DNA from: a virus
Taxonomy: Duplodnaviria; Heunggongvirae; Uroviricota; Caudoviricetes
Length of the DNA: 15,800 nt
IMG/VR virus record: IMGVR_UViG_2693429605_000015
Location: 1-15,800 of that record
Direction: 5' to 3' (one strand)
Both the position numbers and the translations under genes were made by a program. Each line of letters starts with the position of its first letter. The stretch's first letter is position 1. This document shows positions 13,326 to 15,800 of the stretch, piece after piece. Below the pieces are notes generated by a model. It had not been told where the DNA came from. It saw only the letters and a program-made list of their open reading frames with translations, and searched no databases.

Positions 13326-13517
13326 TTGAAAATGTTCATGCAAATAGACAGACGCATAGATATTAATGGCAATTCATACTTAGTTAGATGCGAAGAGAGG
13401 CCTAACGGTGAGTGGCGTGTATATGATATTGACCGTAAGATCAATATCAGCACCATGAACAAAGACACTGCCTTTGATGAATGGAAAGCTGAAGCTAAAA
13501 AACAACATAATTCGTAG
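13326..13517 (+). CDS. Small hypothetical protein (about 61-63 aa)
   Basis: Follows an AT-rich promoter-like gap (13214-13325); start TTG 13326 or ATG 13332; AGAGGA upstream. Confidence 0.4.
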   Translation: MKMFMQIDRRIDINGNSYLVRCEERPNGEWRVYDIDRKINISTMNKDTAFDEWKAEAKKQHNS

Positions 13518-13559
13518 AATTACAAAAACCCTAACCAATTGATGGATTTCTTTTATCTG

Positions 13560-13585
13560 AACTCGCTACGGCGAGTTTTGTTTTA
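13560..13585 (+). terminator. Rho-independent terminator
   Basis: AACTCGC (13560-13566) / GCGAGTT (13571-13577), 7-bp stem with 4-nt loop, followed by TTGTTTTA. Confidence 0.5.
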
Positions 13586-13597
13586 TGGAGATGATAA

Positions 13598-13765
13598 ATG
13601 CACTTCCGAGTCACAGGTGAATGGAATGGAGAACCATTCAACAGAGTTATCGAAGCGGAGAACATCAACGACTGCTATGACCACTGGATGATATGGGCGC
13701 AGATAGCGCATGCAGACGTAACCAATATTCGAATTGAAGAACTGAAAGAACACCAAGCCGCCTGA
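13598..13765 (+). CDS. Small hypothetical protein (55 aa)
   Basis: Hand-translated MHFRVTGEWNGEPFNRVIEAENINDCYDHWMIWAQIAHADVTNIRIEELKEHQAA; GGAG SD; followed by a terminator. Confidence 0.45.
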   Translation: MHFRVTGEWNGEPFNRVIEAENINDCYDHWMIWAQIAHADVTNIRIEELKEHQAA

Positions 13766-13780
13766 TGGCGGTTTTTTATT
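13756..13780 (+). terminator. Rho-independent terminator
   Basis: CCGCC (13758-13762) / GGCGG (13767-13771) stem with TGAT loop, followed by TTTTTTATT. Confidence 0.6.
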
Positions 13781-13787
13781 GCCTGAT

Positions 13788-13803
13788 TTGCAGGTTCGAT
13801 TCC
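13788..13803 (+). other. tRNA T-arm-like fragment (TTGCAGGTTCGATTCC) just upstream of torI
   Basis: 16 nt identical to the T-stem/loop portion of tRNA-Arg (argW) as recalled; the downstream sequence does not complete a tRNA (no matching 3' T-stem or acceptor). Confidence 0.4.
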
Positions 13804-13822
13804 CTATTCGGAGATAGCACTC

Positions 13823-14023
13823 ATGCAACACGAACTACAACCTGATTCACTGGTTGATTTGAAATTCATCATGGCTGATACTGGCTTCGGTAAGACCTTC
13901 ATCTATGACCGGATTAAGTCCGGCGACCTGCCAAAAGCCAAAGTTATCCACGGGCGAGCAAGATGGTTATATCGTGACCATTGTGAATTCAAAAATAAGC
14001 TATTAAGCCGCGCCAATGGGTAA
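13823..14023 (+). CDS. torI: TorI-type excisionase / recombination directionality factor (KplE1/CPS-53 family)
   Basis: 66-aa product MQHELQPDSLVDLKFIMADTGFGKTFIYDRIKSGDLPKAKVIHGRARWLYRDHCEFKNKLLS recalled as E. coli TorI; GGAG SD; sits at the prophage end next to the att core. Confidence 0.8.
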   Translation: MQHELQPDSLVDLKFIMADTGFGKTFIYDRIKSGDLPKAKVIHGRARWLYRDHCEFKNKLLSRANG

Positions 14024-14096
14024 AATAGCGGGTAAAATATTTCTCACATCTAAAAAATACCATTCCAATCAATCCCCTGCTGCCTCAAGTAGATGT

Positions 14097-14111
14097 CTGC
14101 AGGGGACACCA
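14097..14111 (+). other. Prophage attachment-site core (attR side): duplicated 3' end of tRNA-Arg (argW)
   Basis: CTGCAGGGGACACCA equals the 3' T-stem strand, acceptor strand, discriminator and CCA of argW as recalled, with no complete tRNA upstream; phage-type genes stop here and a host gene follows. Confidence 0.5.
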
Positions 14112-14552
14112 GATACCCTTCAAACGAAATCTACCTTCACCCCGTAAAAGATGGGTTTGGCAGCACACTTGCCTTATATCTACTCATTTTTACTGCAACA
14201 GGTTGAAATCTCAGCACTGTCAGAAAGCGCTGATGACTAAACAGCCCTGAGCCGGGCGATGTAACCATCACACAGAATCCTGATAGCGAAATATGGCGTG
14301 ACTCGATACTTCACTCCGCAATGCATTCCTTGATGAATTCGCAGGACCGTGATACACGGGACAGGTCACTGAATGACGACAATGTCCTGGAAATCAGCGA
14401 ACCGCGCATCTGAAGTACATTTGAGCGACTGTACCAGAACATGAATGAGGCGTTTGGATTAGGCGATTATTAGCAGGGCTAAGCATTTTACTATTATTAT
14501 TTTCCGGTTGAGGGATATAGAGCTATCGACAACAACCGGAAAAAGTTTACGT

Positions 14553-15800
14553 CTATATTGCTGAAGGTACAGGCGTTTCCATAACTATTTGCTCGCGTTT
14601 TTTACTCAAGAAGAAAATGCCAAATAGCAACATCAGGCAGACAATACCCGAAATTGCGAAGAAAACTGTCTGGTAGCCTGCGTGGTCAAAGAGTATCCCA
14701 GTCGGCGTTGAAAGCAGCACAATCCCAAGCGAACTGGCAATTTGAAAACCAATCAGAAAGATCGTCGACGACAGGCGCTTATCAAAGTTTGCCACGCTGT
14801 ATTTGAAGACGGATATGACACAAAGTGGAACCTCAATGGCATGTAACAACTTCACTAATGAAATAATCCAGGGGTTAACGAACAGCGCGCAGGAAAGGAT
14901 ACGCAACGCCATAATCACAACTCCGATAAGTAATGCATTTTTTGGCCCTACCCGATTCACAAAGAAAGGAATAATCGCCATGCACAGCGCTTCGAGTACC
15001 ACCTGGAATGAGTTGAGATAACCATACAGGCGCGTTCCTACATCGTGTGATTCGAATAAACCTGCATAAAAGACAGGAAAAAGTTGTTGATCAAAAATGT
15101 TATAGAAAGACCACGTCCCCACAATAAATATGACGAAAACCCAGAAGTTTCGATCCTTGAAAACTGCGATAAAATCCTCTTTTTTTACCCCTCCCGCATC
15201 TGCCGCTACGCACTGGTGATCCTTATCTTTAAAACGCATGTTGATCATCATAAATACAGCGCCAAATAGCGAGACCAACCAGAAGTTGATATGGGGACTG
15301 ATACTAAAAAATATGCCGGCAAAGAACGCGCCAATAGCATAGCCAAAAGATCCCCAGGCGCGCGCTGTTCCATATTCGAAATGAAAATTTCGCGCCATTT
15401 TTTCGGTGAAGCTATCAAGCAAACCGCATCCCGCCAGATACCCCAAGCCAAAAAATAGCGCCCCCAGAATTAGACCTACAGAAAAATTGCTTTGCAGTAA
15501 CGGTTCATAAACGTAAATCATAAACGGTCCGGTCAAGACCAGGATGAAACTCATACACCAGATGAGCGGTTTCTTCAGACCGAGTTTATCCTGAACGATG
15601 CCGTAGAACATCATAAATAGAATGCTGGTAAACTGGTTGACCGAATAAAGTGTACCTAATTCCGTCCCTGTCAACCCTAGATGTCCTTTCAGCCAAATAG
15701 CGTATAACGACCACCACAGCGACCAGGAAATAAAAAAGAGAAATGAGTAACTGGATGCAAAACGATAGTACGCATTTCTGAATGGAATATTCAGTGCCAT
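14553..15800 (-). CDS. cscB: LacY-family oligosaccharide:H+ symporter, most likely sucrose permease CscB (host gene)
   Basis: 415-aa, 12-TM MFS protein colinear with LacY; N-terminus MALNIPFRNAYYRFASSYSFLFFISW matches CscB as recalled. Start codon is the last 3 nt of the window (15798-15800). Confidence 0.85.
   Translation of the reverse strand: MALNIPFRNAYYRFASSYSFLFFISWSLWWSLYAIWLKGHLGLTGTELGTLYSVNQFTSILFMMFYGIVQDKLGLKKPLIWCMSFILVLTGPFMIYVYEPLLQSNFSVGLILGALFFGLGYLAGCGLLDSFTEKMARNFHFEYGTARAWGSFGYAIGAFFAGIFFSISPHINFWLVSLFGAVFMMINMRFKDKDHQCVAADAGGVKKEDFIAVFKDRNFWVFVIFIVGTWSFYNIFDQQLFPVFYAGLFESHDVGTRLYGYLNSFQVVLEALCMAIIPFFVNRVGPKNALLIGVVIMALRILSCALFVNPWIISLVKLLHAIEVPLCVISVFKYSVANFDKRLSSTIFLIGFQIASSLGIVLLSTPTGILFDHAGYQTVFFAISGIVCLMLLFGIFFLSKKREQIVMETPVPSAI

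Follow-up and report, generated by a model that had tools for sequence, protein, structure and literature searches.

The window, that is the entire 15,800-nucleotide stretch analyzed here, carries near its end the attR junction of a prophage integrated at argW, together with a recombination module of the IntS/TorI type, which is known from KplE1, HK620, Sf6, CUS-3 and Kapi1. Read from left to right, lambdoid ORFs of the exo-xis region are followed by a terminator, a first argW-like segment (piece 1), a short leader, torI, two copies of GGGTAAAATA, the att core (piece 2) and chromosomal DNA, which starts again at position 14112 and includes cscB (Table 1). On near-identical genomes RefSeq labels torI 'response regulator inhibitor TorI', and matches to the torI region were found in 4186 of 5426 E. 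coli genomes. When the window was searched for a tRNA gene or pseudogene, ARAGORN returned 0 genes and Rfam 0 tRNA matches at E-values up to 5.

Table 1. Coordinates of the features at the right end of the argW prophage and its flank (window numbering).
Feature	Position	Strand	Basis
55-aa lambdoid ORF (exo-xis region), the final gene ahead of the recombination module	13598..13765	+	ORF list
Intrinsic terminator, 8-bp stem, 4-nt loop and T run (stem-loop 13755-13774)	13755..13779	+	Terminator scan
Piece 1, TTGCAGGTTCGATTCC	13788..13803	+	argW nt 46-61
Conserved centre of piece 1, GGTTCGATTCC	13793-13803	+	Cross-genus comparison
torI leader (19 nt), Shine-Dalgarno GGAGA at 13810-13814	13804..13822	+	
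Second, weaker TorI-like motif in the torI leader, CTATTCGG	13804-13811	+	
torI, recombination directionality factor (RDF, excisionase), 66 aa	13823..14023	+	ORF; RefSeq; homologs
IntS arm-type (P arm) sites, two direct GGGTAAAATA with a 12-bp period	14018..14039	+	Repeat search; TAAA
Putative phage-side core-type arm (C), AAGTAGATGT	14087..14096	+	Locus comparison
Piece 2, CTGCAGGGGACACCA, att core of attR	14097..14111	+	argW nt 61-75
cscB, sucrose permease, chromosomal flank of the argW hot spot, outside the element	14553..15800	-	ORF; RefSeq

Homology to phage lambda, HK140, HK630 and Stx phages spans 13544-13785 and ends there, and a mosaic joint lies at the upstream terminator, directly 5' of piece 1. 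Among 79 E. coli viral loci we found three different terminator stems, and downstream of each an identical T-run, ATTGCCTGAT and piece 1; 74 of these 79 copies of piece 1 are exact, in a scan which comprises only E. coli copies with 100% identical TorI and which informs on mosaic boundaries, not on divergence. The first-pass annotation had described torI as flanked by terminators, and this holds for the upstream side, where the stem-loop is followed by its T run; on the downstream side there is a single candidate, a weak one at 14159-14173, situated past the core in bacterial DNA.

Pieces 1 and 2 were compared with the argW gene of the near-identical lysogen NZ_CM149601, the closest complete genome (98.6% identical over 13500-14550), in which ARAGORN identifies a 75-nt tRNA-Arg (CCT) beside intS, GTCCTCTTAGTTAAATGGATATAACGAGCCCCTCCTAAGGGCTAATTGCAGGTTCGATTCCTGCAGGGGACACCA. 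Each piece is an exact match that occurs once on the + strand of the window, against 0.01 (piece 1) and 0.00 (piece 2) occurrences expected by chance with two mismatches allowed. Taken together they rebuild nt 46-75 of argW, with C61 common to both, in agreement with the first-pass annotation, and the separation of 293 nt with torI inside it is also as first described: it consists of the torI leader, torI itself and the 73-nt P arm. Piece 1 spans the end of the variable loop, the 5' strand of the T-stem, the T-loop and the first 2 nt of the 3' strand of the T-stem. Its centre is identical, base for base, to argW nt 51-61, the attB arm to the left of the inferred overlap, and it contains the TorI core motif GTTCG at 13794-13798.

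As regards piece 2, the attL of NZ_CM149601 reads GATTC-CTGCAGGGGACACCA-TTTATCAG and the attR of the window GATGT-CTGCAGGGGACACCA-GATACCC, and the block shared by the two is exactly 14097-14111, the attL in this comparison being that of the near-identical lysogen and not of the window's own prophage. Of 5426 complete E. coli genomes, 2605 have an empty site in which argW is joined straight to the right flank, the best matches being identical over 300/300 nt to the query, which was a synthetic join of argW and window positions 14112-14336. Piece 2, which the first-pass annotation had taken to behave as the att core, does so: it represents, in attR, the KplE1/HK620/Sf6 core of 15-16 bp in which IntS exchanges strands, and as an att core it is already known. 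The published KplE1 core is CTGCAGGGGACACCAT (PMC2951348), the att of Kapi1 is 17 bp, i.e. the KplE1 core plus one base (PMC8787464), and strand exchange by IntS in the core has been demonstrated experimentally for KplE1 (PMC2951348, PMC3509656). Based on the imperfect dyad symmetry GATGTC / TGCAGGG / GACACC, we infer a 7-bp overlap, TGCAGGG, at 14098-14104, with AAGTAGATGT as the putative core-type site on the phage side.

The module as a whole closely resembles the attL-intS...torI-attR modules of KplE1 (CPS-53), HK620, Sf6 and Kapi1 at argW, with TorI proteins that are 98-100% identical, the same P-arm repeats, the core CTGCAGGGGACACCA, the attP between the RDF and integrase genes, and piece 1 at the same place in all. 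The recombination parts do not differ from those of these modules, apart from the 16th core base, which is G here, where it belongs to the chromosomal flank, and T in K-12. It is the carrier prophage that differs, since the phage of the closest complete genome is contractile-tailed and not P22-like.

By contrast to piece 2, piece 1 is dispensable for excision in vitro and has no part in strand exchange. A 135-bp attR supports excision in vitro (PMC3509656); its left primer is placed within the final torI codons, and piece 1 lies about 200 bp outside this fragment. Nor is piece 1 the arm-type site suggested in the first-pass annotation. IntS arm-type sites are defined by a TAAA motif (PMC2951348), and piece 1 lacks a motif of this type (GGGTAAAA), whereas the arm-type sites are the GGGTAAAATA repeats, for which the equivalent stretch in HK620 is annotated as an attP repeat.

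A further suggestion had been that the RDF cassette lies inside an extended, tRNA-like attP, with pieces 1 and 2 as the two halves of a split att block. This is contradicted by the published 135-bp attR, which excludes piece 1, and by two further features. Firstly, the arm adjoining the core has its own T-loop remnant: the 9-11 nt to the left of TGCAGGG read (A/G)TTCGATGT(A/C/T) in Enterobacter, Serratia, Citrobacter, Pantoea, Dryocola, Rouxiella, the Erwinia phage and others, so that in most genera this arm (xTTCGATGTx) is a decayed T-loop contiguous with the core, of which AAGTAGATGTC in E. coli is the most decayed version. Secondly, a metagenomic relative (L126), whose RDF is 51% identical to TorI, carries an intact and contiguous 27-nt block, CCAGGTTCGATTCCTGTAGGGGACACCA, downstream (3') of the RDF gene, and no T-arm copy was found when we looked upstream of this gene. 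Typical tRNA 3'-half att blocks, such as that of L126, run contiguously from the T-arm to the 3' end; pieces 1 and 2 add up to one such block, but here it is discontiguous and the core arm has its own decayed T-loop. Since the core arm keeps its own T-loop and the L126 block is contiguous, piece 1 is a supernumerary T-arm copy and not a displaced half. That piece 1 comes from tRNA sequence is evident from its match to argW. As routes by which it may have arisen, tandem integration, aberrant excision, secondary-site integration and deletion were each considered and rejected: they place the T-arm beside the core, on the P'/int side, or need one more recombination to bring it upstream of torI, and none gave the observed order within one or two steps.

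To assess whether piece 1 is maintained, we compared TorI loci across genera. The motif was found in ten lineages, namely E. coli, Enterobacter, Citrobacter, Serratia, two Pantoea, Edwardsiella, Hafnia, a mis-binned MAG and an Erwinia phage, among which the identity of torI DNA is 64-93%; the conservation in relatives of the 13788-13803 match is thereby established for its centre, GGTTCGATTCC. Within this 11-mer, 10 of 11 positions are invariant, with GGTTCGATTTC in two lineages, while in the same ten lineages torI is invariant at 11 of 66 third-codon positions (17%) and at 2 of 10 fourfold sites. If the neutral per-site rate is taken as 0.167, this corresponds to about 1.6e-7 per window position for the 11-mer, a statistic that is conditional on homologous leaders, the ten lineages having been recognized by possessing the motif. 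A MAFFT alignment independent of this anchoring recovered the same conserved block. The distance from the motif to the ATG is 16-19 nt (25 in Serratia), and the leader sequence directly 3' of the motif varies between nearly all lineages. On its left, the two adjoining bases, CA, are nearly constant, within a flank that reads TTGCA in E. coli, TTACA in Hafnia and TTCCA in Citrobacter-like loci. In Serratia and Pantoea the tRNA match runs rightward to CCTG (nt 63), piece 1 of Hafnia is TTACAGGTTCGATTCC, the flanks of piece 1 in Edwardsiella pair as GACAGG...CCTGTC, and the Erwinia phage carries two tandem copies of the motif 16 bp apart. Judged from these alignments, the central 11-13 nt of piece 1, CAGGTTCGATTCC, are kept constant across genera by selection.

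The motif is absent from Dryocola, Tatumella, Rouxiella, Klebsiella, Cronobacter, Mixta, Arsenophonus, Xenorhabdus and several Pantoea loci. At these loci the upstream region is wholly different, and in Klebsiella the RDF gene overlaps the preceding gene. Among the compared TorI loci no decayed copies were seen, the motif being either intact or absent, a pattern consistent with an accessory element which is under selection yet dispensable, and which disappears on replacement of the upstream module. No T-loop copy was found upstream in AlpA-type relatives located beside tRNA-Lys (L128-L130) or in several TorI loci; the T-arm copy is a feature limited to one clade. A strict tracking of the host tRNA by piece 1 was considered and, on the host tRNAs available for a minority of the loci, rejected: the Edwardsiella core points to a host tRNA of the GCAGG type, and its piece 1 reads ACAGG...CCTGT. 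The T-stem of Proteus argW is ACAGG/CCTGT, and several copies of piece 1 also read ACAGG.

Cumulatively, our comparisons suggest that piece 1 is a tRNA-derived cis element and probably an operator for IntS or TorI, a function that we infer from its letters and position. The full proposal, with piece 2 as the attR core and piece 1 as a second argW T-arm copy that is a candidate IntS/TorI operator, is in our judgement evenly balanced between right and wrong. Piece 1 is situated between the upstream terminator and the ribosome-binding site of torI, and a protein bound there, 7 nt upstream of the Shine-Dalgarno sequence, would act on transcripts that read through the terminator. Such an operator would set the amount of TorI and in this way decide prophage excision. 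In the literature the torI promoter is called uncharacterised, and the control of excision is described as resting on RDF expression (PMC2951348).

Which of the two proteins would bind may be considered in the light of their known sites. The core-binding domain of IntS must recognize the attB arm of argW and would be expected to bind the identical sequence in piece 1. The 11-mer is identical to the attB arm with which the catalytic and core-binding domains of IntS must make contact, and this would explain why it needs to stay tRNA-like. Piece 1 shares its attB-arm sequence with the core-type (B/C) half-sites of heterobivalent tyrosine integrases such as lambda Int; it differs from them in being solitary, in its distance of about 300 bp to the real core, and in having neither an adjacent overlap region nor an inverted partner arm. 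To our knowledge no isolated core-type site is known to serve as an operator. Sequence variation is considerable in the true phage-side arm (C), and IntS therefore seems tolerant, which counts against piece 1 as an IntS core-type site.

TorI binds 8-mers with the core GTTCG, GATCG or GTCCG (PMC2951348), and by means of the published coordinates we recovered the sites CAGTTCGC, CAGTCCGC, CCGTTCGT, TAGTTCGC and CAGATCGT. Through sites of this kind, I1-I5 on attL, TorI represses intS (Panis et al., PLoS Genet 2010, PMC2951348). The 8-mer of piece 1, AGGTTCGA, resembles them in its GTTCG core, when set against the TorI pattern YNG(T/A)(T/C)CGY, and in its adjacency to a promoter or leader, but its outer positions are A on both sides in all ten lineages and a pyrimidine in all known or inferred TorI sites. 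Moreover, I1-I5 form arrays with a 10-bp period, whereas piece 1, which lies upstream of torI itself, would count as one site only, or as a pair spaced 12 bp apart if CTATTCGG in the leader is included; the counterpart of the latter in other genera is TAGTTCGG, CTGTTCGG or CTGTCCGG. TorI alone would also leave the invariance of ATTCC unexplained. On this comparison we regard IntS as somewhat more likely than TorI to be the ligand of piece 1.

In one specific version of the operator proposal, which we hold to be improbable, piece 1 would be a decoy attB half-site used in regulation. The lysogen would make IntS constitutively at a low level, and IntS would bind piece 1 through its core-binding domain and the two arm-type sites, just past the torI stop codon and about 225 bp off, through its N-terminal domain, so that the resulting loop would silence the whole of torI. 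Excision would be licensed only once this loop had been broken, by read-through transcription or by TorI itself.

Among the explanations that compete with an operator, the one that fares best, although we consider it unlikely, is that piece 1 is a neutral relic, either the leftover of a longer tRNA-identical att block or the trace left at argW by a previous integration or a secondary-site event, functionless now and persisting as the module is young and spreads horizontally. Piece 1 is plainly tRNA-derived, being exact for nt 46-61 in E. coli with variants in Hafnia, Serratia and Pantoea, and L126 retains a contiguous 27-nt T-arm and 3'-end block at its att site. The element is, furthermore, dispensable, being absent from many related loci, and within E. 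coli it is conserved no more than its neighbours. A relic core, as the first-pass annotation had suggested, may be its origin, yet this leaves unexplained the invariance of 10 of 11 central positions when flanking leader positions vary freely and only 17% of torI third-codon positions are retained. The fixed distance to the ATG, the tandem duplication in the Erwinia phage and the lack of partly decayed copies among the compared loci likewise argue against neutrality.

We think it improbable that the conserved segment belongs to a cII-activated integration promoter (pI), with TTGCCTGATTTGC (13779-13791) as the cII box and a transcript that would start near the torI start codon and express int across attP after infection. 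Such a promoter is what the databases suggest: HK620 (AF335538) is annotated here with 'promoter, phage integration' and binding of 'cII protein', and pI is also annotated in Sf6. The geometry is indeed like that of lambda pI, which is placed in the same way with respect to the beginning of the RDF gene, the transcript starting at or inside that gene. Some members of the family may use a promoter of this kind, as the Arsenophonus relative has, at the corresponding place, TTGCGTGTAATTG, which we take to be nearly the lambda pI cII box. The spacing in TTGCCTGATTTGC, however, is TTGC-N5-TTGC. The activator box expected at -35 is TTGC-N6-TTGC, N6 being the rule for lambda and P22, and HK620's own pRE reads TTGC-N6-TTGT. 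The TTGC repeats are not conserved (TTAC in the K-12 type, TTCC or none in other genera), while the 11-mer downstream of them is invariant, so that the conserved part is T-loop sequence and not the TTGC boxes. In addition, the motif-bearing module occurs in non-lambdoid carriers, a contractile-tail prophage and the Erwinia phage Midgardsormr38, and a consensus scan found no sigma-70 promoter, nor did inspection by hand reveal a good -35/-10 pair.

An element acting at the RNA level appears very unlikely. In this case the leader sequence GGUUCGAUUCC would pair with the Shine-Dalgarno region (UUCC with GGAG, GGUU with AACC) or mimic a tRNA T-arm and so gate translation or processing. In four lineages the MFE fold is a hairpin in which the Shine-Dalgarno sequence is sequestered (L011, L013, L015 and L112; z -0.8 to -2.8), the sole variable position of the 11-mer (C to T) retains a G-U pair, and Edwardsiella has a 6-bp T-arm-like hairpin. 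On the other hand, the E. coli, Enterobacter, Edwardsiella and Erwinia versions lack this shared fold (z -0.4 to +1.0), the RNAalifold consensus reaches only -3.5 kcal/mol with almost no covariation, and no Rfam match was obtained.

That piece 1 should be a true att core at which crossover occurs, or one half of a split attP, is hardly credible, even though all its 16 nt repeat argW nt 46-61 directly and without mismatch and the CUS-3 record (CP000711) labels the 16-mer both 'attL core' and 'attR core'. This record begins inside argW, with the 16-mer, TGCAGGGGACACCA, the P' arm and int, and it ends at piece 1; the K1 strain IHE3034, which is 100% identical at the right end of CUS-3, continues directly into torI, the P arm and the real core. 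Had excision used the 16-mer, torI would be fused to a broken argW, and the expected scar of excision or deletion through this repeat, argW nt 1-61 joined to the torI leader, had a contiguous match in 0 of 5426 E. coli genomes. In the virion genomes of HK620 and Sf6, piece 1, torI, the core, the P' arm and int form one contiguous run, which indicates that the circle closes at the core, and the attB deleted in the Kapi1 study was the 17-bp sequence (PMC8787464).

GenBank thus holds conflicting annotations of the same 16-mer, as an att core in CUS-3 and as a cII/pI promoter in HK620. The att-core annotation of CUS-3 is wrong, and the CUS-3 reference genome, being cut at the 16-mer, is without its own excisionase gene and true attR; the cII/pI promoter label of HK620 and Sf6 rests on weak grounds. 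No description of the cross-genus conservation of the 16-mer, or of its identity with the attB arm, was found in the accessible literature. The operator reading makes piece 1 a probable cis-acting accessory to a recombination module that has been studied in depth, and an 11-mer shared across genera between a terminator and the torI ribosome-binding site is a cheap target for mutagenesis and binding assays. This prophage family resides at argW in most E. coli genomes, and in the published view it is the amount of TorI that decides excision. Should the decoy half-site version of the operator proposal be true, tRNA mimicry would be part of the switch that maintains lysogeny in a widespread prophage family.

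In the CUS-3 reference genome (CP000711), the att core was defined as the same 16-nt copy of the argW T-arm that lies in the torI leader of the window, and the record therefore begins within argW and ends about 310 bp early, leaving out torI and the P arm as well as the true attR core. K1 strains such as E. coli IHE3034 match the CUS-3 right end at 100% identity, and there all three elements come directly after it. The attR core of IHE3034, CTGCAGGGACACCAT, is the canonical core minus one G, which is missing from within the inferred overlap region. The missing base should impair excision, and a core shortened in this way may be the reason why the true repeat was overlooked when CUS-3 was annotated.

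Locations of the features discussed (L-numbers denote comparison loci, with locus-internal coordinates)
Feature	Source	Coordinates
att core as defined in the record	CUS-3	L001 1745-1760; L004 1-16
Region with torI, P arm and true core	E. coli IHE3034	L124 1740-2080
attR core	E. coli IHE3034	L124 2056-2070
Tandem CAGGTTCGATTCCC copies	Erwinia phage Midgardsormr38	L005 2484-2515
Region with the 27-nt att block	Metagenome scaffold	L126 1705-1800
torI homolog, core, integrase gene	Hafnia	L112 1201-2601
argW homolog	Proteus hauseri	L025 3995-4067
TTGCGTGAGATTTGCGTGTAATTG	Arsenophonus nasoniae	L021 about 2455-2490
CCTGATTTGCAGGTT	Window	13782-13796
CCTGATTCACTGGTT, torI codons 7-11	Window	13841-13855
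DUF4942 fragment	Window	14322-14411
Prophage with the module	NZ_CM149601	L123 1-21000

The Erwinia phage Midgardsormr38 carries CAGGTTCGATTCCC in two tandem copies, 16 bp apart and directly upstream of its excisionase gene, and together with GATTCGATGTA, the attP arm adjoining the core, these give the phage three T-loop-like elements. Ahead of the TorI homolog of Arsenophonus nasoniae, the T-arm motif is replaced by TTGCGTGAGATTTGCGTGTAATTG, which closely resembles the lambda pI cII-binding box. This suggests that the same slot upstream of torI-type genes is occupied by different regulatory cassettes. Within the window, part of the T-arm motif recurs in the torI coding region through CCTGATTCACTGGTT, which is 80% identical to CCTGATTTGCAGGTT, a stretch across the start of the leader copy, with a spacing of 59 bp (repeat family D4); this likeness is probably due to chance.

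Downstream of an RDF gene whose product is 51% identical to TorI, the att site of a metagenome scaffold is formed by a contiguous 27-nt tRNA block comprising the T-arm with a TGT-type T-stem, the acceptor 3' strand and CCA, and its P arm is AT-rich and free of GGGTAAAA repeats. In Hafnia, the torI homolog, core and integrase gene are contiguous in the chromosome (4.87 Mb contig), which suggests either that elements lie in tandem at argW or that the attP has not recombined. The arm beyond the core is unlike the E. coli P' arm. The Proteus hauseri layout differs, with the TorI homolog about 1.3 kb from the argW homolog and on the opposite strand; the latter has an ACAGG/CCTGT T-stem and does not encode CCA.

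Between the core and cscB, the window holds what RefSeq annotates in near-identical genomes as a DUF4942-domain pseudogene fragment, a scar left when other elements inserted at the argW hot spot in the past.

Enterobacterial TorI modules, 85-92% identical, also occur on contigs of an 'Actinomycetes bacterium' MAG (L011, JAEWEJ010000341) and a 'Parachlamydiaceae' MAG (L029), both probably through contamination or mis-binning. In the closest complete genome, NZ_CM149601, the prophage bearing the module has contractile-tail, baseplate and sheath genes where HK620 and Sf6 have those of a P22-like podovirus, and the int-att-torI module has thus been shuffled among very different phage types.
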